Shown here piece after piece: positions 3,199 to 11,556 of a DNA stretch of 64,000 nt. Source of the DNA: an uncultured Dialister sp. (GTDB lineage Bacteria > Bacillota > Negativicutes > Veillonellales > Dialisteraceae); NCBI GenBank assembly GCA_964587685.1, contig CAZPLS010000001.1, positions 14,134 through 78,133 on the forward strand, in the 5' to 3' direction. The notes under the pieces were generated by a model. The model saw only the letters and a program-made list of their open reading frames with translations. It did no database searches and was not told the DNA's origin. The stretch's first letter is position 1. Each line of letters begins with the position of its first letter. Position numbers and translations under genes: made by a program.

Positions 3199-3705
3199 TC
3201 ATCCGGATAAGTGCGCCGGGAAGGGATACCGCAAAAGGAACTGCCGTGCGCACACCCCTGTGAATGCGCCCGCAATGGCTCCGCTTGCGGCCAGCACAGG
3301 GAAATAGGCCAGCACGGAAGGGGTTCCAAGAACAGCCACCGCCACAGCCAGCTGTCCTGCATTATGAAGCACCGCGCCGCATACGCTGCAAAGGCAAATC
3401 CGACGCACCGGTAGCACCCGCTTCAACAGGAGCATGCCGATGAGACAGCTCACCCCTCCAGCCAGGCTGTAAAGAAGCGCTGCGGCCTGTCCGGCAAATA
3501 ACGCCGCCAGAAGAATACGCGCCAGTAGAACCAGCGCCGCCTCTCCCGGTCGGAATCGGCAGACCATCAGCACGGTGATGACATTCGCCAATCCGATTTT
3601 TACACCGGGTATTGGAATCGGCGGCGGGATCTGCATTTCTATGACAAACAAAATGAGAGAAAGCCCGGTAAGAATTGCCAGAACGTTCAATCGGCGTACA
3701 GACAT
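3199..3705 (-). CDS. Gx transporter family membrane protein (family historically mislabelled heptaprenyl diphosphate synthase component I)
   Basis: 168 aa, about 5 TM helices. Hallmark IPPPIPIPGVKIGLANVITV and CGAVLHNAGQL motifs. Last gene of the ApbE operon. Confidence 0.8.
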   Translation of the reverse strand: MSVRRLNVLAILTGLSLILFVIEMQIPPPIPIPGVKIGLANVITVLMVCRFRPGEAALVLLARILLAALFAGQAAALLYSLAGGVSCLIGMLLLKRVLPVRRICLCSVCGAVLHNAGQLAVAVAVLGTPSVLAYFPVLAASGAIAGAFTGVCARQFLLRYPFPAHLSG

Positions 3706-3727: not shown

Positions 3728-4060
3728 TCAATCCGCCCACTGGATCACCAGCCGGTGCGGCAGGCACACGATAGGCAGTCCGCCTTCAATGAGCTTTCCC
3801 GACTTCACGCAAATCTGATCCGGACAATCGGCGGACTGCATACGAATTTCCTTCGGCGCAATATAAATGGTATTGCGCCCGCTGTCACAAGTCAGGGTCA
3901 ATTCCTCCGGCTCCATTACTTCTGAAAGGTTCACCGTGCGGACAACTTTTCCATTCTGCAGAATCTCCGCCCGCTGCTTTTCTGGCGTTGACCCGCAGGC
4001 GGCAGCCATAGAAGAAAGTCCAAGAACCAGCGCTGCTGCTCCCAGCCGTCCGACCATCAT
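3728..4060 (-). CDS. NusG domain II-containing lipoprotein (DUF1312-like)
   Basis: 110 aa. Lipobox MAAAC-G. C-terminal CPDQICV...GLPIVCLPHRLVI motif typical of the family. ATGA overlap with the apbE stop. Confidence 0.75.
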   Translation of the reverse strand: MMVGRLGAAALVLGLSSMAAACGSTPEKQRAEILQNGKVVRTVNLSEVMEPEELTLTCDSGRNTIYIAPKEIRMQSADCPDQICVKSGKLIEGGLPIVCLPHRLVIQWAD

Positions 4061-5076
4061 TTCCGAAGCACCTCCACCGTACTGCCTGTATACTCCGGCA
4101 AAACAGAGAAGGCCTTTTCCAATCCTTCGGTAACCGTAATGCGCCGGCCCTCTTCAATCAGAATCATTTCAAAATCGTCGCGGCTGCGCCAAAAGGCACT
4201 GGCCCTGTCCCTGCCCATCACAAAGAGCGCGGTGGAAAGAGCATCGCACAAAAGCCCGTCCGATCCGATGACGGTGACAGAAAGGAGGCCGTTCTCCGCG
4301 GGATAGCCCGTGGCGGGATCTATGATATGATGCCAGCGCTTCCCCTCCGCATCGACGAAGTACCGTTCATAACTTCCCGATGTGACCACTGCCGCATCTC
4401 TCACAGAGATCATGCCCGCATAGCCTTCCCCATCAGGGGCGCGCAGCCCCACCCGCCAGGGCGTGCCGTCGGGCCGACTCCCCACCGCCTCCACATTGCC
4501 GCCAAGACTGATAATGGCAGAGCGCACGTTATGCCTGCGAAGAATACGGCCCGCCTCGCGGCCGGCATATCCCTTGCCGAGCGCACCAAAATCGATTTCC
4601 ATGCCCGGCGCAAGGACGAGCTTGTTCTTTTCCAGATGCACCCGCTGCCAGCCCGTGCGGCTTACCACCTCCCGGAGCTCACCGCTTCCGGGCACCCGGC
4701 GCTGTTCCTTCGTAAAGCCCCAGGCCTCCACGACGGGATAAATGGTGGGATCCAGTGCGCCTCCCGTTTGCTCCGCCAACGCAAGGGCCTCACGCATCAC
4801 CGCCTCCGCATCGCTGCCCAGCGTTACGGCCTCATCGGTGCGATGATTCACGCGCCACACATCGCTCCCCTCTCTGGTGACAGAAAGGGCGTCCTCTATG
4901 GCGCGTATGCCCTCCTCCGCCGCTTTCATCCCCTCCTCGGCGTACGGACCATAGGCAGTCATGGTCATGTACGTATTCATGGCGAAGAAATTTCGGGTGT
5001 ACTTCTTCGAGCCCTCCGCGCCGCAACCCGCCAACAGCAGGCAAACCGCAAGAAACAGCCCTAAAATCCGCTTCAT
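4057..5076 (-). CDS. apbE: FAD:protein FMN transferase (ApbE family) lipoprotein
   Basis: Start trimmed to MKRILGLFLAVCLLLAGCG (lipobox LAGC). ApbE-like body (FAMNTYMTMTAY, DPTIYP, GALGKGYA, SGSYERY). 1-nt TAATG overlap with the upstream flavodoxin gene. Confidence 0.9.
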   Translation of the reverse strand: MKRILGLFLAVCLLLAGCGAEGSKKYTRNFFAMNTYMTMTAYGPYAEEGMKAAEEGIRAIEDALSVTREGSDVWRVNHRTDEAVTLGSDAEAVMREALALAEQTGGALDPTIYPVVEAWGFTKEQRRVPGSGELREVVSRTGWQRVHLEKNKLVLAPGMEIDFGALGKGYAGREAGRILRRHNVRSAIISLGGNVEAVGSRPDGTPWRVGLRAPDGEGYAGMISVRDAAVVTSGSYERYFVDAEGKRWHHIIDPATGYPAENGLLSVTVIGSDGLLCDALSTALFVMGRDRASAFWRSRDDFEMILIEEGRRITVTEGLEKAFSVLPEYTGSTVEVLRK

Positions 5077-5798
5077 TACCAGCCCGCTTCGGCCAGCCAT
5101 GCATCAATGCGCGGCTTCGCGCTGTCTACATCCGGACGGTATACGCCCACAGGTCGCCCGACCACCGCCGAATCCGGCAGCGCTCCCCGCAGAGCTTCCA
5201 CGCTGTCTGCCAGCCCGCCGGTACCATGAGCGCAGAAGGGAATCACCGTTTTACCGGAAAAATCATAGCTTTCGAGGAATGTCAGAACCGGCATGGGAAG
5301 GGTGTACCACCAGTTCGGATAACCGAGGAACACCACGTCATAGGCATCCATATCAGGAACCTGCGCTGCCAGCTCCGGCCGGGCATTTCTCTGCTTCTCC
5401 ACCGCAGCCCGATCCAGACATTCATCATAATCGCTCGAATAGGGCTCCTTCACGCGAATGGAAAACAAGTCGCCTCCCGTCCGCTCCTGTATCCACCCGG
5501 CCAGCCTGGCCGTATTTCCCGGCGGAAGAACACTTGCTGAGGTGGACGCATCGGGATCTATAGCCGATGGGTTGGCCACATGCGTATTGTCCGCCCAGGT
5601 GAAATAGGCAATGAGAACCTTCCTGTCCGATTCACCCGGCGTCCGGCTCTCCACCGCGGGCGTTTCCCTCACCTCAGGAACCGCCGCCTGCGCCGTCTGC
5701 ACAGGGCCGACCGGGGCCGATGCAGACGGCTGCCCGCCGCATCCGGTCAGTACGGCCAGAACCCACGCTGACAAGGCCAGCGAAAACCACGATTTCAT
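5076..5798 (-). CDS. exported flavodoxin-like lipoprotein (Flavodoxin_4-type), paralogue 1
   Basis: Lipobox LTGC-G. Low-complexity linker, then VLIAYFTW...PPGNTARLA...TGGDLFSI...VVFLGYPNWWYTLPMPV...IPFCAHGTGG flavodoxin-fold motifs. Confidence 0.8.
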   Translation of the reverse strand: MKSWFSLALSAWVLAVLTGCGGQPSASAPVGPVQTAQAAVPEVRETPAVESRTPGESDRKVLIAYFTWADNTHVANPSAIDPDASTSASVLPPGNTARLAGWIQERTGGDLFSIRVKEPYSSDYDECLDRAAVEKQRNARPELAAQVPDMDAYDVVFLGYPNWWYTLPMPVLTFLESYDFSGKTVIPFCAHGTGGLADSVEALRGALPDSAVVGRPVGVYRPDVDSAKPRIDAWLAEAGW

Positions 5799-5905
5799 AG
5801 TGCTGCTCCTTTCTGTGCATCAGCCCGTTGTATATACGGTATGCACCCAATCCTTTACCGCCTGCTCCGAAGCGGTGACTTCCGCTGCTTTCAGATACTA
5901 TCCAT

Positions 5906-6574
5906 TCATGCCCGATGCTTCCGGCTCTGCCGCTGACGCGCCAGTGCCATAGCCTTCCAGCCCAACCAGATTCCAAGAACCATAATGGCCACGTGATCCA
6001 AATAAAATAAAAGTTTCGGTTCCTCGTAATCAAAGAACACAAACTCCATCCGCAGAAACAGGTAGTCTATCCAGTCCCTGCTCCAGAAAGCCCATACGCC
6101 GTACAGCGCAAAGCACGCCGCAGCGGCGGACAGGAGCCGTTTCAGCCCCGGCCCCGCCTTCCGCGTCATGGATGCAAACATATCTCCGTGCAGGCCTATG
6201 TGAAAGCTCATAATGAGAAATCCCCAATAGGCTGCGGTCATATGCATTTCTCTGCCAAGAGTCATGCTTCCAAGGCGCGGCAGAAACTCCACCGCAGGTC
6301 TTGCAAGAATGAGAGCGCTCCATAGAAGGGCCAGGATTACCAGGGCCAGGCAGAAATTGGCCCCGGCCTGAAGACGGCGAACCGCATTCCATCGCCCTCT
6401 CCGCAGAGAAGGCGCCCAATTCCGATTCAACCAGTGGTGGAAAAACAGGAGCACAAAGAAGCAGGTCCCTCCCACCATGTGTGCTGTCGTCCCAAAGAAA
6501 GGAAATCCCATGAGAAAGAACAGGCACACAGTCATAGCCGCATCCGTAATCCGCCGTATCTGCGCGCTCTTCAT
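5906..6574 (-). CDS. DUF4405-like polytopic membrane protein (cytochrome-b-like, His-rich TM helices)
   Basis: 222 aa, about 5-6 TM segments with intramembrane His residues (AHMVGG, FHHW, HMTAAYW, FHIGLH). Starts 3 nt after the upstream flavodoxin stop. Confidence 0.7.
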   Translation of the reverse strand: MKSAQIRRITDAAMTVCLFFLMGFPFFGTTAHMVGGTCFFVLLFFHHWLNRNWAPSLRRGRWNAVRRLQAGANFCLALVILALLWSALILARPAVEFLPRLGSMTLGREMHMTAAYWGFLIMSFHIGLHGDMFASMTRKAGPGLKRLLSAAAACFALYGVWAFWSRDWIDYLFLRMEFVFFDYEEPKLLFYLDHVAIMVLGIWLGWKAMALARQRQSRKHRA

Positions 6575-6577
6575 GGG

Positions 6578-7279
6578 TTATCCCACCAGATTCAGGGAAT
6601 TCACCCAATTGGCTACCGAATTCTCCGCACCTGCCGAAGAGGAATCCCGCACATGGAAGCCCTCTCTCACCGTGGCCCCCGGTTCCGCATTTCGAATGGT
6701 GTTCACCGTATCAGAAAGGGCGCTGCCGCCGGATGTGCAGAAGGGAACAATAATTTTGCCGGACAAATCATATTCATCAAGGAAGGTATAGAGCGCCATT
6801 GGCAAATCTCCCCACCAATTGGGATAGCCCAGGAAAATTACATCATAATCAGCCATATTCTCCACATGTGTGGCCAGCGCGGGCCGATCTCCCCGCTGCT
6901 GCTCTTCCCTCCCCTGATCCACAGTCGCGCGATACGTGGGCGGATAGGGATTCACTGTGCGAATGGAAAACAAATCGCCGCCGGTCAATTTCTGAATATT
7001 CCGTGCCACCAGCCCGGTATTGCCCGTCATTCCTTCCGCCGTGGGCTGTATGCTCGCGGACGTGGAGGCATCCGCCCCTGCAGGAATCTCCGCATTTTCT
7101 CCATAGGCAAAGTACGCAATAAGAATTTTGTGTTCTCCCTGCGGTGTCTGTGCTTCCTGCTGCACTGCCGGAGCCGGTGCCGGCGAAGAGGAAGCCGCAC
7201 TTCCCGTGCTGCCCGATGCGCAGGCCGTAAGGGCCAGCGTAAGCGCCGCTGCCGCCGCCAATGCACTGTATTTTTTCAT
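6578..7279 (-). CDS. exported flavodoxin-like lipoprotein (Flavodoxin_4-type), paralogue 2
   Basis: Start trimmed to MKKYSALAAAAALTLALTACA (lipobox LTAC) behind AAAGAAAGGGGA. Motifs ILIAYFAY...TGNTGLVA...TGGDLFSI...VIFLGYPNWWGDLPMAL...VPFCTSGGS. Confidence 0.8.
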   Translation of the reverse strand: MKKYSALAAAAALTLALTACASGSTGSAASSSPAPAPAVQQEAQTPQGEHKILIAYFAYGENAEIPAGADASTSASIQPTAEGMTGNTGLVARNIQKLTGGDLFSIRTVNPYPPTYRATVDQGREEQQRGDRPALATHVENMADYDVIFLGYPNWWGDLPMALYTFLDEYDLSGKIIVPFCTSGGSALSDTVNTIRNAEPGATVREGFHVRDSSSAGAENSVANWVNSLNLVG

Positions 7280-7568: not shown

Positions 7569-7670
7569 AGAAATATCGTAGAGTCATGCGAAGGCCCATG
7601 GAATATGCCGGAACGCCGGAATCAGGGAATGATCCATGATGCCTTTATTGAATTCAAAGGAGGATTTTAT

Positions 7671-8654
7671 ATGAATCAGCGCATGAAAACTCTTCTTTCC
7701 GTTTCCTTAGCAGCCCTCGGCACCGCTGCCATTGGGCTCACCGCCAATGCGTATGAACTCAGCCCGGAGGTTAAAACGGCCACCCCCGCACTTCAGGAGG
7801 CGGCCAATATTGGTGTCTGGACCGGCGGCAACCCCGCTCTGGCCTCTCTGGAAAATAAGGACGCCATCCTTGTCATGGCTTTCGGCACCACCTTCACCGA
7901 TGCCCGCGCAAAGAATATTGATGCGGTGGAGGCAGCGATTCAGCAGGCCCATCCGAATATTCCTGTGTTTGAAGCCTATACGAGCCATATCATCATTGAA
8001 CGGGTAGAAGCAGCGGAAGGCATTCATAAGCCCACTCCGGAGGAAGCGTTTGCCCAGCTGAAGGCCGATGGATATACCCGTGTGGCCGTTGTTTCCCTCA
8101 ACGTCGTTCCCGGCATTGAATACGAATACAACCGCCTTGTAACCAAACAGTTTGCCAACGACTTCAAATCGGTTTCCTTTGCTACGCCCCTCATGTACTA
8201 CCAGGGAACAGAGGGTGAACCGGACCAGGTGGTTGACTTCGTCAAAGCCCTTTCTTCCCAGTTCCCCGCGCTCAGTGAAGATGAAGGCATCCTGCTCCTG
8301 GCTCACGGAACCCACCATCCCGCCAATGCGTACTATTCCGTCATTCAGGACCGCATTGGCGAAGTGGGACTGAACAATATTTTCGTATACTCCGTAGAGG
8401 GCCGTCCGAATCTGGAGGATGTCATTCCGAAGCTGAAGGAAAAAGGCATCGCCCATGTGACGCTCATGCCCATTATGCTCGTAGCGGGCGACCACGCCCA
8501 TAACGACATGGCCGGTGACGAGGAAGACAGCCACAAGGTCATTCTTGAAGGAGAAGGGTTCACTGTGGACACCTACATCCATGGCCTCGGAGAGAACCCG
8601 AATGTCCGCGCCCTGTATGTAGAAAGAGCCGATGAAGCAGTGGCTGCGCTGTAA
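7671..8654 (+). CDS. cbiK: sirohydrochlorin cobaltochelatase CbiK homologue with N-terminal signal peptide (periplasmic/exported type)
   Basis: Start trimmed to MNQRMKTLLSVSLAALGTAAIGLTANA-YE behind AAGGAGG. CbiK motifs ILVMAFGTT, LLLAHGTHH, VAGDHAHNDMAG. Confidence 0.8.
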   Translation: MNQRMKTLLSVSLAALGTAAIGLTANAYELSPEVKTATPALQEAANIGVWTGGNPALASLENKDAILVMAFGTTFTDARAKNIDAVEAAIQQAHPNIPVFEAYTSHIIIERVEAAEGIHKPTPEEAFAQLKADGYTRVAVVSLNVVPGIEYEYNRLVTKQFANDFKSVSFATPLMYYQGTEGEPDQVVDFVKALSSQFPALSEDEGILLLAHGTHHPANAYYSVIQDRIGEVGLNNIFVYSVEGRPNLEDVIPKLKEKGIAHVTLMPIMLVAGDHAHNDMAGDEEDSHKVILEGEGFTVDTYIHGLGENPNVRALYVERADEAVAAL

Positions 8655-8691
8655 TAACGAAGTATTCCCGGTCTTTTTGCCGGCATAATAA

Positions 8692-8719
8692 ACGCCCCTG
8701 CTTTTGCGGGGCGTTTTTA
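8692..8719 (+). terminator. putative intrinsic terminator/attenuator between cbiK and the binding-protein gene
   Basis: CGCCCC/GGGGCG stem followed by TTTTTAT. Confidence 0.5.
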
Positions 8720-8754
8720 TCTGACCGGCAGGATCTCCGTCAAAGGAGGCCTCC

Positions 8755-9681
8755 ATGAAATCGCTCTATTCATTTTTTACCGCCTGCCTTCTCTCCCTGG
8801 CGCTGGCAGGCTGCGCGGCCTCCCCTGCCGTAACGGAAGGGGAAAAAGCATTGACCTACAAGGGAGAGACTGTCACCGTCCCGGCCAAGCCGCAGCGGAT
8901 CGCCGTGCTGACCACACCGCTCCTCAATATGGTGTATGCCGTGGGAGGTACCGTTATCGCCCGCCCCATCACAGAAACCCCCATCCCGGATGAAGCGCAG
9001 AACGTGACGTCCCTGGGTACGCCTCAGCACATTGATATGGAAAAGCTCGTTTCTCTTTCACCCGATTTTGTCATCGGCGGGAAGAGCCAGAACGGAAAGC
9101 TGGAGCCGCTTCTTCAGAGCAACCGCATTCCCTACCTCCTGGTGGATTACGACGGCATCCATGACAATGTACCGCTTCTGCAATTTCTTGGCACCCTCTG
9201 CGGAAAGGAAGCGGAGGCCGAAGCGGTGTGCGCCGACTACGAAAAGCGCATGCGCGCCGCCAAAGAGGCCGCCGCTGCCCATACACCGGCGCGGATTGCC
9301 ATTCTCCGCGCCACCGGCCGGGATGTGACGGCAGAAACACCCACCGCCATCTGCGCCTCCATGGCGGAATACCTGGGCATGGACAATGTCCTTACCTCTC
9401 ATGGCACGCTTTCCTTCCAGACCAAGACGGTGCCCTATTCGCTGGAACAGCTCTCAGCGGATGATCCGGACATTCTCTTCATCGTTACCATGGGGAATGC
9501 TGACGCCATCAACCAGAAGCTGGACCAATCCATGAGGAATAACCCCGCCTGGGCCCATCTGTCAGCCGTTGCCAATGACCGGGTCTACTTCCTGCCCTCG
9601 GATCTCTTCCTTCTCAATCCGGGCATCCGCACCCCTGATGCGCTGGAGATGCTTTCGTCCCTGGCTTACCCGGACAAGTAA
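8755..9681 (+). CDS. ABC transporter substrate-binding lipoprotein, iron-chelate/corrinoid (FecB/BtuF) class
   Basis: Lipobox LAGC. PQRIAVL...SPDFVIGG...YFLPSDLF pattern typical of class III periplasmic binding proteins. Confidence 0.85.
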   Translation: MKSLYSFFTACLLSLALAGCAASPAVTEGEKALTYKGETVTVPAKPQRIAVLTTPLLNMVYAVGGTVIARPITETPIPDEAQNVTSLGTPQHIDMEKLVSLSPDFVIGGKSQNGKLEPLLQSNRIPYLLVDYDGIHDNVPLLQFLGTLCGKEAEAEAVCADYEKRMRAAKEAAAAHTPARIAILRATGRDVTAETPTAICASMAEYLGMDNVLTSHGTLSFQTKTVPYSLEQLSADDPDILFIVTMGNADAINQKLDQSMRNNPAWAHLSAVANDRVYFLPSDLFLLNPGIRTPDALEMLSSLAYPDK

Positions 9682-9704
9682 CAGTTTCAATTATACCTGA
9701 CAGC

Positions 9705-9751
9705 AAACCGCCCCTTTGTGAAGAGGAAATTCCTCCGCAAAGGGGCGGTTT
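9705..9751. terminator. bidirectional intrinsic terminator between convergent genes
   Basis: 14-bp stem AAACCGCCCCTTTG/CAAAGGGGCGGTTT. Confidence 0.7.
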
Positions 9752-9766
9752 GATCTGCCTGAAAAT

Positions 9767-10549
9767 TCACCGGCACAGTCCGTTAATGATGATGCACGGC
9801 CTTCCGCCGCGCTCTTCCACTTCGGCGTCCACACCGAATATGTGGGCAATTGACTCGTGGGTCAGCACCTCTCCCGGCGGGCCGCTCCGCTGAATCAGCC
9901 CGTCCTCTAGTATGCAGACCTTGGAGGAATACCGGCAGGCATGGCCAATGTCATGGAGCACCAGAATGACCGTAAGTCCCTCTTCCCGATTGAGCTGGCT
10001 GATCAGCTCCAGCACCTCCAGCTGGTGGCACACATCCAGGTAGGTGGTGGGCTCATCCAGAATCAAAACCTCCGGCTCCTGGGCCAGCGCCATGGCAATC
10101 CACACGCGCTGCCGCTCTCCCCCCGAAAGAGACGCCACGGTGCGCTCCTTCAGCTGGTAGGTATGGGTCCTTCGAAGGGCGTCCGCCACAATGGCCCGGT
10201 CCCGGGTGGACACGCCGCTCCACCAGTGCTGGTAGGGATAGCGACCGCATGCGGCCAGCTCCAGCACCGTCATGTCCTTCGGTGTTTCGTGAATCTGCGG
10301 CAGGAAGGCCGCCTTTCTTGCCAGCTCTCCCGTACGGTAGGAGCGCAGGTCCCGCCCATCAATACAGACGGTCCCCTCATCAGGCTTCAGGTTGCCTGTA
10401 ATTACCTTGAGCAGTGTGGATTTTCCGCACCCGTTCCGCCCGAGGAAGGAAACAATCTGCCCCTGCTCCACCGTGCAGTCCGCACCGCACAGCACCGGAT
10501 GGCCGCCGAAGGCCACCTTGACGCCCTTCACTTCCACTGCCGCTTTCAT
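9767..10549 (-). CDS. ABC transporter ATP-binding protein (FecE/BtuD class)
   Basis: Start trimmed to MKAAVEVKG with an ATGA overlap on the permease stop. Walker A GRNGCGKST, signature LSGGERQR, Walker B LILDEPT. Confidence 0.9.
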   Translation of the reverse strand: MKAAVEVKGVKVAFGGHPVLCGADCTVEQGQIVSFLGRNGCGKSTLLKVITGNLKPDEGTVCIDGRDLRSYRTGELARKAAFLPQIHETPKDMTVLELAACGRYPYQHWWSGVSTRDRAIVADALRRTHTYQLKERTVASLSGGERQRVWIAMALAQEPEVLILDEPTTYLDVCHQLEVLELISQLNREEGLTVILVLHDIGHACRYSSKVCILEDGLIQRSGPPGEVLTHESIAHIFGVDAEVEERGGRPCIIINGLCR

Positions 10550-11556
10550 CAGGTGCTCCTCCTCAGAAGGTACAGGAAAAAGGGCGCCCCCAGAAAGGCC
10601 ATAATAATGCCCGCCGGGATTTCCACCGGTGCAAATACCGTCCGGCCCAGGGTATCGCACAGCACGAGGATGCCCGCGCCCAGCAGGGCCGAGCCGGGGA
10701 TGAGGTATTTAAAATCCGAACCGATAAGAAGGCGCACGATATGCGGCACAACGAGCCCCACAAAGCCGATGAGTCCGGCAATGCTCACCGCACCGGCCGC
10801 CAGAAGCGCCGCCGCCGCGGTCATGAGAAAACGCACCCGTTCCACGGGCAGGCCCAGGCCGCGCGCCGTTTCGTCCCCCAGAGACAGAATGGTCAGCGCC
10901 TTGGCCCCCAGCACGGCAAACAGCAATCCCAGCACCGTATAGGGAAAGAGCGCCTCCACCTGGGGCCAGCTCCGCGCGGACAGGCCGCCCACCATCCACA
11001 GGAGCGCCCCCTGCACCCGATCCGAATAAAAGACGAGCAGGGCGGAAATGCCGCTTCCCAGTAAAGCGCTCACCGCCACGCCGGCCAGTATGATCCGATT
11101 CGGCCGAATGCCGCTCTTCCACGCCAGCGCATACACCGCCCCCGCTGAAAGCATGGCCCCCACAAAGGCCGCCGGCGTCAGGAGGAGGGACGCGTCAGGC
11201 ATGAAAATGAGCATGATAACCCCTGCCAGGCCGGCACCGCTTGACACGCCCACAATGCCGGGATCCGCCAGGGGATTTTTCATCACCGCCTGCAGGATGG
11301 CGCCGGATACGGCCAGGTCTGCCCCCACCAGGGCGCCGGTGAGGTTCCTGGGAAAGCGAATGTTCCAGATCACCATGCCGTCCGTCCCCGTTACCGGGCC
11401 GAAGAGAATGTCCACGATGCGGGAAAAGGGAATGTCTGCCGAGCCGAAGACCAGACTCCCCACCATCACCGCGGCGGTAAATACCAGGCAAGCCGCAAGA
11501 ACGGACAAACGGACCGCTTTATTTTTCCCTGATGCTTCCTCTGTCGTTTTTTTCAT
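10549..11556 (-). CDS. FecCD-family iron-chelate/corrinoid ABC permease
   Basis: 335 aa polytopic protein. Typical motifs GAILQAVMKNPLADPGIVGVSSGA and LLGAGILVLCD. Confidence 0.9.
   Translation of the reverse strand: MKKTTEEASGKNKAVRLSVLAACLVFTAAVMVGSLVFGSADIPFSRIVDILFGPVTGTDGMVIWNIRFPRNLTGALVGADLAVSGAILQAVMKNPLADPGIVGVSSGAGLAGVIMLIFMPDASLLLTPAAFVGAMLSAGAVYALAWKSGIRPNRIILAGVAVSALLGSGISALLVFYSDRVQGALLWMVGGLSARSWPQVEALFPYTVLGLLFAVLGAKALTILSLGDETARGLGLPVERVRFLMTAAAALLAAGAVSIAGLIGFVGLVVPHIVRLLIGSDFKYLIPGSALLGAGILVLCDTLGRTVFAPVEIPAGIIMAFLGAPFFLYLLRRST

Follow-up and report, generated by a model that had tools for sequence, protein, structure and literature searches.

Two exported flavodoxin paralogues, FldA and FldB, are encoded in the window, the whole 64,000-nucleotide stretch of uncultured Dialister sp. 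DNA that was analysed, and both carry the heptad D-A-S-T-S-A-S. The question raised by this locus is whether the heptad is a variant ApbE flavinylation site or a structural loop of the flavodoxin fold. The ApbE motif is D-x-x-[S/T]-G-A-[S/T], in which FMN is attached to the last residue (PMC12052999; PMC8238504). Asp at position 1, Thr at position 4, Ala at position 6, and Ser at position 7 are present in both heptads, but the canonical Gly at position 5 is absent and Ser takes its place. In our best explanation, which we hold to be highly probable, FldA and FldB are exported flavodoxins with FMN covalently attached by ApbE at the last Ser of the heptad.

The flavodoxin operon

The flavodoxin genes are part of a single operon on the minus strand, consisting of fldA, a DUF4405 gene, fldB, apbE, a NusG_II lipoprotein gene, and a gene for an EetB-type FAD-exporter subunit. 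Translation of fldA starts at the ATG at 7279, which gives a gene from 7279 to 6578 encoding a Flavodoxin_4 lipoprotein of 233 residues (PF12682, E 9e-28). FldB, encoded at 5076..5798, is a Flavodoxin_4 lipoprotein of 240 residues (PF12682, E 1.1e-28). The PF12682 scores of both proteins are above the Pfam cut-off, and an alignment of 168 residues gives 48% identity between the two. Both N termini show a lipoprotein signal peptide with a hydrophobic segment leading up to the lipobox Cys (...VLAVLTGC and ...LTLALTAC). By this judgement, which is one of sequence pattern, as are all signal-peptide calls made here, FldA and FldB are predicted to be extracytosolic. A third DASTSAS flavodoxin copy is found elsewhere in the source genome.

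Between the two flavodoxin genes, a DUF4405-type membrane protein of 222 residues (5906..6574) is predicted to be a di-haem b cytochrome. Its PF14358 score of 21.1 bits is below the cut-off of 26.7, and it is 29% identical (E 1e-16) to a paralogue on contig C103 which itself scores over the cut-off with 39.3 bits. Four membrane-embedded His residues are conserved in the flavodoxin-linked homologues (H32 in 34/35; H46, H111, and H125 in 35/35) and would bind two haems. Haem b binding has been shown for a DUF4405 protein (PMC11334425).

The open reading frame of the FMN transferase ApbE (PF02424, E 3.6e-85) spans 4057..5100. The protein probably begins at the ATG at 5076, a codon overlapping the stop of fldB, and would then carry a lipoprotein signal (MKRILGLFLAVCLLLAGC); fldB and apbE are, on this gene model, translationally coupled. 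The start of the next gene, encoding a NusG_II-domain lipoprotein of 110 residues (3728..4060; PF07009, E 4.5e-27), overlaps the apbE stop codon (ATGA). This lipoprotein is probably an EetA-like partner of EetB, since we take EetA to be the PF07009 family. Two genes downstream of apbE, at 3199..3705, lies the gene for the EetB homologue (PF07456, E 3.8e-38), an ECF-S-like FAD-binding exporter subunit which would provide FAD for the extracytosolic ApbE. EetB is defined as PF07456 and is required for FAD export in Listeria, and the synteny of eetA and eetB has been described (PMC9973259). A Pfam domain search found no glycosyltransferase or kinase genes in the operon. Genes for a CbiK-type chelatase and a BtuF/FecB-type importer (7605-11556), adjoining a corrin operon, are transcribed divergently from the flavodoxin operon.

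Sequence and structural position of the heptad

The minus strand reads GAT GCC TCC ACG TCC GCG AGC from 7072 to 7052 in fldA and GAT GCG TCC ACC TCA GCA AGT from 5552 to 5532 in fldB, confirming the identical DASTSAS reported in the initial annotation. The heptad comprises residues 70-76 of FldA and 83-89 of FldB. In the register of D-x-x-[S/T]-G-A-[S/T] (PMC12052999), the predicted FMN acceptors are Ser76 of FldA (codon 7054..7052) and Ser89 of FldB (codon 5534..5532). The two copies differ synonymously at five of the seven codons (2, 4, 5, 6, and 7). The flanks have diverged as described, and the pairwise alignment includes a 5-residue indel before the G-N-T.

Heptad identity combined with synonymous codon differences had been taken as proof of selection on the peptide, and this argument was rejected. 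An identical 7-residue run is unremarkable on its own because the paralogues are 48% identical and share longer runs (TGGDLFSIR, nine residues; FLGYPNWW, eight residues), and old paralogues should differ synonymously along their whole length. Selection is nevertheless supported by the wider family, since across hundreds of homologues the heptad is the sole conserved island within an otherwise variable loop. The case for selection is therefore made from family-wide conservation and not from the FldA/FldB pair.

The AlphaFold2 model of FldB (mean pLDDT 87.7) places β1 at residues 61-65, a loop at 66-94 that contains the heptad, and α1 at 95-107. The heptad region (residues 81-90, mean pLDDT 74) has the lowest confidence in the folded domain. 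The best structural hits of the model are 4ICI, FMN-bound 3KLB, 4J8P, and 3EDO, with Foldseek E values of 5e-12 to 2e-8 and TM-scores of 0.77-0.83 normalised by target length. These four non-covalent Flavodoxin_4 structures have the same fold as FldB, and their sequences can be aligned with it from α1 onward, but they lack the insertion of ~25 residues, the motif, and a signal peptide. The HMMER alignment to FMN-bound 3KLB splits at the insertion, which puts it inside the FMN phosphate-binding loop. According to the 3KLB alignment, the family alignment, and the model, the insertion is located between β1 and α1, three residues ahead of G-N-T, and family members without it have a gap at this position. 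As the initial annotation had proposed, the heptad thus sits in the loop just before the phosphate-binding G-N-T, a position mapped here by sequence and predicted secondary structure.

Conservation of the motif and its relation to export

The pattern D-A-x-[TS]-S-A-S is found in 117 of the 120 closest homologues. Motif positions were counted in 78 domains with the insertion, taken from representatives at 50% identity. At position 5, Ser is found in 63/78 and Gly in 4/78, with Arg, Gln, Thr, His, Ala, and Glu also seen. The replacement of Gly with Ser, correctly noted in both heptads, is therefore the majority state of the subfamily and not an oddity. At position 4, 25/78 domains have Ala or Gly. 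Position 7 is Ser in 76/78, and Ser or Thr in all 78, although the latter was required by the search pattern and hence gives no independent evidence. As a consequence of the usual D-A-x-[STA]-S-A-S sequence, motif scanners demanding S-G-A-T miss the motif of this subfamily.

The motif was never found in domains without the insertion in the family alignments. Signal or lipoprotein peptides are present on 56 of the 62 motif-bearing proteins scored, and the remaining six are probably truncated. The motif had been expected to be limited to members bearing signal peptides, and it does mark exported members only. The converse does not hold, since both the insertion and the motif are missing from many exported Flavodoxin_4 proteins. 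Three such proteins are encoded in the same genome, and a DUF4405 neighbour has also been seen for proteins of this kind. Export alone, therefore, does not force covalent attachment.

Association with ApbE

Flavodoxin pairs with D-A-x-x-S-A-S occur in 7 of the 53 genomes of the taxonomic family, six in the window's genus and one in another genus. In all seven genomes apbE lies directly beside the pair. The arrangement seen in the window is kept in six related genomes. Since these genomes are kin within one family, the 7/7 linkage may represent only one or two evolutionary events. ApbE is present in 9 of the 46 family genomes without the pair. Within the window's genus, it occurs in 6/6 genomes with the operon and in 0/6 without it. 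Of 80 named loci in other taxa, 34 have a motif-bearing flavodoxin, and ApbE is encoded in the flank of 8/34 of these, compared with 0/46 loci without one. The genus pattern and these flanks support the flavinylation reading.

Whole-genome presence of ApbE was also tried as a discriminator and rejected. ApbE was present in 10/10 motif genomes but also in 8/10 controls (one of these eight being a match broken by stop codons); ApbE is so common in those taxa that its mere presence does not discriminate. The informative measures are instead the distance to apbE and the pattern of presence and absence within the family.

A single ApbE is encoded in the assembled source genome, which is 79% complete, and neither FMN_bind nor RnfD/NqrB proteins were found there. 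When all its open reading frames were scanned for the motif, no credible ApbE substrate emerged beyond the three DASTSAS flavodoxins. With a single ApbE and none of the usual substrate families, these flavodoxins are the only credible substrates in the assembly; given the 79% completeness, further substrates could be encoded in the unassembled part.

Comparison with described systems

The initial annotation regarded a covalently flavinylated flavodoxin as unusual, but such a class is already known. ApbE-associated Flavodoxin_4 proteins with a motif-bearing β1-α1 insertion were described by Huang et al. in 2024 (mSystems, PMC11334425). Flavinylation with the cognate ApbE was shown there for two members, Anaerocolumna xylanovorans SHO45324.1 and Desulfosporosinus lacus WP_073032509.1, and was lost when the predicted site was changed to alanine (PMC11334425). 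FldA and FldB share with this class the PF12682 domain, the β1-α1 insertion, an ApbE-like motif ending in Ser, the extracytosolic location, the co-localised apbE, the Firmicutes host, and a predicted acceptor beside the conserved FMN site. No architectural difference separates them, with the likeness set by the published description, in which the motif letters are not printed.

The same study described gene clusters that combine apbE with DUF4405, a haem b cytochrome, as well as a flavinylated Flavodoxin_4 and a flavin exporter (PMC11334425). The gene-cluster type, like the surface-flavodoxin class, is thus known and was partly tested in 2024. The window operon is a counterpart of the Oscillospiraceae cluster (Fig. 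6C of that paper), whose DUF4405 protein, MBD5117352.1, binds haem b; the two share all four components within a single operon. In the window these include a DUF4405-type protein with four conserved His, which scores below the Pfam cut-off, and a PF07456 EetB homologue as the exporter subunit. In the window the cytochrome gene stands between two flavodoxin paralogues, whereas close relatives have three.

The canonical ApbE substrates (NqrC, NqrB, RnfG, RnfD, PplA, NosR, and FMN_bind domains) have in common with the two heptads the Asp at position 1, Thr at position 4, Ala at position 6, a hydroxyl at position 7, and an extracytosolic location. The heptads differ in having Ser rather than Gly at position 5 and Ser rather than the preferred Thr as the acceptor. 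A change of Gly to Ala in a model ApbE substrate retained ~50% flavinylation (PMC12052999). FldA and FldB also have a flavodoxin fold instead of FMN_bind, with the flavin pocket already present in non-covalent relatives. A further parallel is the engineered 'flavin-fixing' (Tong et al., JACS 2023, PMC10722498; reviewed in PMC12052999), in which an ApbE motif near the bound FMN phosphate yields a covalent flavoprotein. That system is a laboratory design, while in FldA and FldB a natural loop insertion would give the same solution.

Alternative explanations

In ordinary flavodoxins, phosphate is bound by loops rich in hydroxyls. The heptad could be only a structural or phosphate-contacting loop, with FMN bound non-covalently as in 3KLB and ApbE serving another substrate, an explanation we consider improbable. 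The Ser at position 5 is in its favour, as are the motif-free exported Flavodoxin_4 proteins of the same genome, also DUF4405-adjacent, from which non-covalent surface flavodoxins appear viable. However, the D...A-S pattern fits the ApbE register and not the phosphate loop T/S-x-T-G-x-T, which is kept separately as G-N-T. The assembled genome offers ApbE no other candidate substrate, and within the genus ApbE is found only where motif-bearing flavodoxins occur. Homologues of the same architecture are covalently flavinylated at the motif Ser/Thr (PMC11334425).

Flavinylation on another hydroxyl of the heptad (Ser85, Thr86, or Ser87 in FldB) instead of the last Ser is very improbable, even though hydroxyls are counted on four of its seven residues and the model is least confident at the heptad. 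In all characterised ApbE substrates the acceptor is the last motif residue, seven positions from Asp (PMC12052999), and only position 7 is a constant hydroxyl because positions 4 and 5 vary. Ser/Thr-rich exposed lipoprotein loops can also be modified in other ways, and the heptad might, for instance, be O-glycosylated, phosphorylated, or recognised by a protease or sortase-like enzyme, with no flavin role. Nothing specific was found in favour of this explanation, the Pfam search of the operon found no glycosyltransferase or kinase, and flavin chemistry is indicated both by the position in the FMN-phosphate loop and by the close association with apbE and eetB; it is extremely improbable. All tests made here agree with the preferred explanation, a variant ApbE site on an exported flavodoxin, which is supported by the motif register, the insertion position, the coupling to apbE, the conservation, and the published experiments on the class.

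Proposed mechanism and possible electron acceptor

The gene content, domain families, lipoboxes, insertion position, conservation, and ApbE linkage have been observed for FldA and FldB, while Ser/Thr-dependent and ApbE-dependent flavinylation of two flavodoxins and haem b in DUF4405 are known from homologues (PMC11334425). From these we infer flavinylation at Ser76 and Ser89. FldA and FldB would be flavodoxins anchored by lipid to the cytoplasmic membrane, on its outer face. The EetB-type exporter, probably together with the NusG_II lipoprotein, would carry FAD out of the cell, and the lipoprotein ApbE would transfer its FMN moiety to the last Ser of the heptad as a phosphoester. Because the heptad lies where ordinary flavodoxins have their FMN-phosphate loop, the tethered FMN could occupy the usual flavin pocket and would not be lost by diffusion. 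In the direction and towards the kind of acceptor that we infer, electrons from the cytoplasm or membrane would pass through the di-haem DUF4405 cytochrome to the flavodoxins and on to an extracytosolic acceptor.

A tentative and on the whole unlikely proposal is that the flavodoxin pair is the extracytosolic reductant for the divergent signal-peptide-bearing CbiK-type chelatase and the BtuF/FecB-type ABC importer. If true, the electrons would serve reductive metal release or insertion in a haem, corrinoid, or siderophore outside the cell. The divergent exported cbiK adjoins the operon in three of five related operon-bearing genomes, and this conservation is too weak for the adjacency to assign the acceptor, an argument rejected for this reason.

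Implications

FldA and FldB add two more members, or three with the extra genomic copy, to the surface-flavoprotein class published in 2024. They are a clean example, since the genome's only ApbE appears to be dedicated solely to flavodoxins. One possible explanation of the D-A-x-[ST]-S-A-S motif, and of the variants with His, Thr, Arg, and Pro, is that the specificity of flavodoxin-dedicated ApbE enzymes is relaxed or has co-evolved. Motif-free exported flavodoxins linked to DUF4405 are common as well, and the view that flavin can be kept outside the cell only by covalent attachment needs qualifying accordingly.

The Flavodoxin Genes and Their Operon

The heptad D-A-S-T-S-A-S, a candidate ApbE motif, lies in two paralogous genes of the Dialister sp. 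window, fldA (7279..6578, minus strand, 233 aa) and fldB (5798..5076, minus strand, 240 aa). The ATG at 7279 has been taken as the sensible start of the fldA ORF. Both products match PF12682 Flavodoxin_4 (E 9e-28 for FldA and 1e-28 for FldB) and have a lipoprotein signal peptide at the N-terminus. Reading the minus strand at both sites confirms the identical heptad reported in the initial annotation, encoded by GAT GCC TCC ACG TCC GCG AGC in fldA (7072..7052, aa 70-76) and GAT GCG TCC ACC TCA GCA AGT in fldB (5552..5532, aa 83-89), as well as the five synonymous differences, which fall in codons 2, 4, 5, 6, and 7. Selection on the peptide, which had been deduced from this pattern, is supported by the family-wide data, but the codon pattern alone is a weak argument. 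FldA and FldB are 48% identical over 168 residues in a pairwise alignment that also contains longer identical runs, TGGDLFSIR (9) and FLGYPNWW (8), so an identical run of seven is unsurprising.

The two genes belong to a single tightly packed minus-strand operon comprising fldA, a DUF4405-type gene, fldB, apbE, and the genes of a NusG_II-domain lipoprotein and a PF07456 protein. The DUF4405-type membrane protein (6574..5906, minus strand, 222 aa) is a predicted di-haem b cytochrome whose DUF4405 match is below threshold. Among its flavodoxin-linked homologues, His32 is conserved in 34/35 and His46, His111, and His125 in 35/35. A paralogue on contig C103 of the same genome, with which it shares 29% identity, scores above the Pfam DUF4405 cut-off. 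The longest apbE ORF (PF02424, E 4e-85) begins at an ATG at 5100, within fldB. Translation from the likely start, ATG 5076 on the minus strand, yields a clean lipoprotein signal, MKRILGLFLAVCLLLAGC; this ATG overlaps the stop codon of fldB (TAATG), suggesting translational coupling of the two genes. Also on the minus strand are the NusG_II-domain lipoprotein gene (4060..3728, 110 aa) and the PF07456 gene (3705..3199, assigned by Pfam match). Listeria EetB, an FAD-binding ECF-S-like exporter subunit supplying FAD to extracytosolic ApbE, belongs to PF07456; co-localization of eetB with apbE is seen in 2,169 genomes, and with eetA in 3,328 (PMC9973259).

In the same-genus relative G043, a third lipoprotein flavodoxin with the loop D-M-P-A-S-A-S and the core AYPNWW is encoded between the DUF4405 gene and fldB (L002:1570-2253), and in G044 and G045, also of this genus, a profile match falls at the corresponding site. 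In the window, no more than a 108-nt spacer (5799-5905) separates the DUF4405 gene from fldB, so one paralogue appears to have been lost from, or never gained by, its operon.

Position and Conservation of the Motif

The initial annotation placed the heptad in a loop ahead of the G-N-T motif, and this location is borne out by three lines of evidence. The HMMER alignment of FldB with 3KLB, an FMN-bound Flavodoxin_4 structure, falls into two pieces, beta1 (KVLIAYF) and G-N-T with alpha1 onward, leaving ~25 FldB residues between them without a counterpart. In a 46-sequence alignment, the insertless homologues show a gap exactly at this insertion. The AlphaFold2 model of FldB (mean pLDDT 87.7) has the Flavodoxin_4 crystal structures 4ICI, 3KLB, 4J8P, and 3EDO as its top structural matches and places the heptad (83-89) in the loop between beta1 (61-65) and alpha1 (95-107), the region of lowest confidence within the folded domain. 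The FMN phosphate is held by the beta1-alpha1 loop in flavodoxins, and it is through this phosphate that ApbE attaches FMN to its target. Covalent attachment is thus consistent with where the insertion lies. Another insertion of ~14 residues, YFSRxGxNYxxGxxxxLxxGNT, is found at the same loop in cytosolic Flavodoxin_4 proteins (L008, L010, L015, L020, and many more loci), and these carry no flavinylation motif. With two distinct insertion types, the loop is an insertion hotspot in the family.

Among the 120 closest homologues, 117 show D-A-x-[TS]-S-A-S at the same place, and those whose N-terminus is complete are lipoproteins. Among the best 150 representatives of 50%-identity clusters, 78 insertion-bearing domains with the motif were scored. 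Because the scoring pattern itself demanded Asp at position 1, Ala or Pro at 6, and Ser or Thr at 7, these three residues carry no independent weight. At position 4, the domains have Thr, Ser, Ala, or Gly. Position 5, the canonical Gly, is Ser in 63 domains and Gly in four, the rest having Arg, Gln, Thr, His, Ala, or Glu. Ser for Gly is thus the normal state of the insertion-bearing subfamily. Other natural endings are S-P-S, H-A-T, H-A-S, T-A-S, and G-A-S. Loci of other genomes (L026, L027-L034, L045, L009, and L007) provide D-A-V-x-S-P-S, with Pro at position 6, D-A-S-x-H-A-T and D-V-S-T-H-A-S, with His at position 5, D-A-S-A-T-A-S, and the canonical-like D-T-V-A-G-A-S. The spread suggests that ApbE may tolerate much variation at position 5.

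None of the 71 domains with a short or no insertion among the best 150 representatives has the motif. A signal or lipoprotein N-terminus is present in 56 of the 62 motif-bearing first domains, the remainder being apparently truncated, and ~32 insertless first domains also have signal-like N-termini. The proposed restriction of the motif to signal-peptide members holds in one direction: motif-bearing proteins are mostly exported, but export does not imply the motif.

Association with ApbE

Among 53 genomes of the same taxonomic family, Flavodoxin_4 is found in 49 and ApbE in only 16. Among the candidate insertion-type genes retrieved from them, pairs of D-A-x-x-S-A-S flavodoxins occur in seven genomes (G000, which is the window's genome, G041-G045, and G035), and apbE immediately adjoins the pair in all seven. 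Within the window's genus, six genomes have the operon and ApbE together and six have neither. As the seven genomes are kin, their linkage may go back to no more than one or two evolutionary events. Of 80 named loci in other taxa, 34 hold a motif-bearing flavodoxin and 46 do not; apbE is within the fetched flank at eight of the former and at none of the latter. Whole-genome presence of ApbE was rejected as a discriminator (10/10 motif genomes vs 8/10 controls).

The window's genome (79% complete) has a single ApbE, and neither an FMN_bind nor an RnfD/NqrB family protein was found in this assembly. Across all its ORFs, scanning for the motif gave only FldA, FldB, and a third DASTSAS lipoprotein flavodoxin as credible ApbE substrates. 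The third is encoded outside the window on contig C3 (L101:1187-2254), is fused to a C-terminal Cyclophil_like2 domain (PF18050), and has a LysR regulator and a Zn-dependent dehydrogenase as neighbours, with no apbE linkage. Flavodoxin-Cyclophil_like2 homologues of ~376 aa are very common.

Probable Flavinylation and Proposed Function

Huang et al. (mSystems 2024, PMC11334425) mined apbE neighbourhoods and noted that a flavinylated Flavodoxin_4 and the flavin exporter are frequently encoded in apbE-DUF4405 clusters as well. In their experiments, co-expression with the cognate ApbE led to flavinylation of the A. xylanovorans and D. lacus proteins, Ala at the predicted site abolished it, and an Oscillospiraceae DUF4405 protein was shown to bind haem b. 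The window operon is an instance of exactly this apbE-DUF4405-Flavodoxin_4-exporter cluster. In the canonical motif D-x-x-[S/T]-G-A-[S/T], FMN is attached to the last residue, and a Gly-to-Ala change leaves ~50% flavinylation (PMC12052999, a 2025 review), so a non-Gly residue at position 5 is compatible with ApbE catalysis.

The loop position, family conservation, ApbE linkage, and the homologues of PMC11334425 together support the heptad as a variant flavinylation site, with FMN very probably on its last Ser (Ser89 in FldB, Ser76 in FldA). Some flavodoxins without the motif are exported too. Three such Flavodoxin_4 domains, lacking insertion and motif, are encoded in the same genome. Its second DUF4405 module, outside the window on contig C103 (L102:14-2874), has the DUF4405 gene flanked by two insertless flavodoxins, a membrane-anchored FGE-sulfatase-Flavodoxin_4 fusion on one side and a Flavodoxin_4 with a signal peptide on the other. 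As both are devoid of the loop insertion and of any ApbE motif, they appear to be exported with FMN held non-covalently. That the heptad itself is purely a structural loop with non-covalent FMN is unlikely beside the evidence for flavinylation. Attachment at another of its hydroxyls, away from the residue used in the canonical motif, is less probable still, and a modification unrelated to flavin is hardly to be expected. The heptad observation is thus confirmed and its flavinylation reading supported. The idea that a covalently flavinylated flavodoxin would be unusual does not stand, as the system was already described in 2024.

In the proposed mechanism, the EetB-type transporter would export FAD, and the lipoprotein ApbE would transfer FMN to the two Ser residues, where the tethered FMN would sit in the ordinary flavodoxin pocket. 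Electrons would cross the membrane via the DUF4405 di-haem cytochrome to FldA and FldB, which would then reduce some extracytosolic acceptor. Divergent from fldA (7605-11556) are genes for a signal-peptide CbiK-type chelatase and a Peripla_BP_2 binding lipoprotein of an ABC importer. In G043, G044, and G045, though not in G041 or G035, cbiK stays next to fldA, and the importer is likewise a conserved neighbour in three of these five related genomes. The exported CbiK homologue and importer beside fldA, not counted here as evidence, hint at the electron acceptor.
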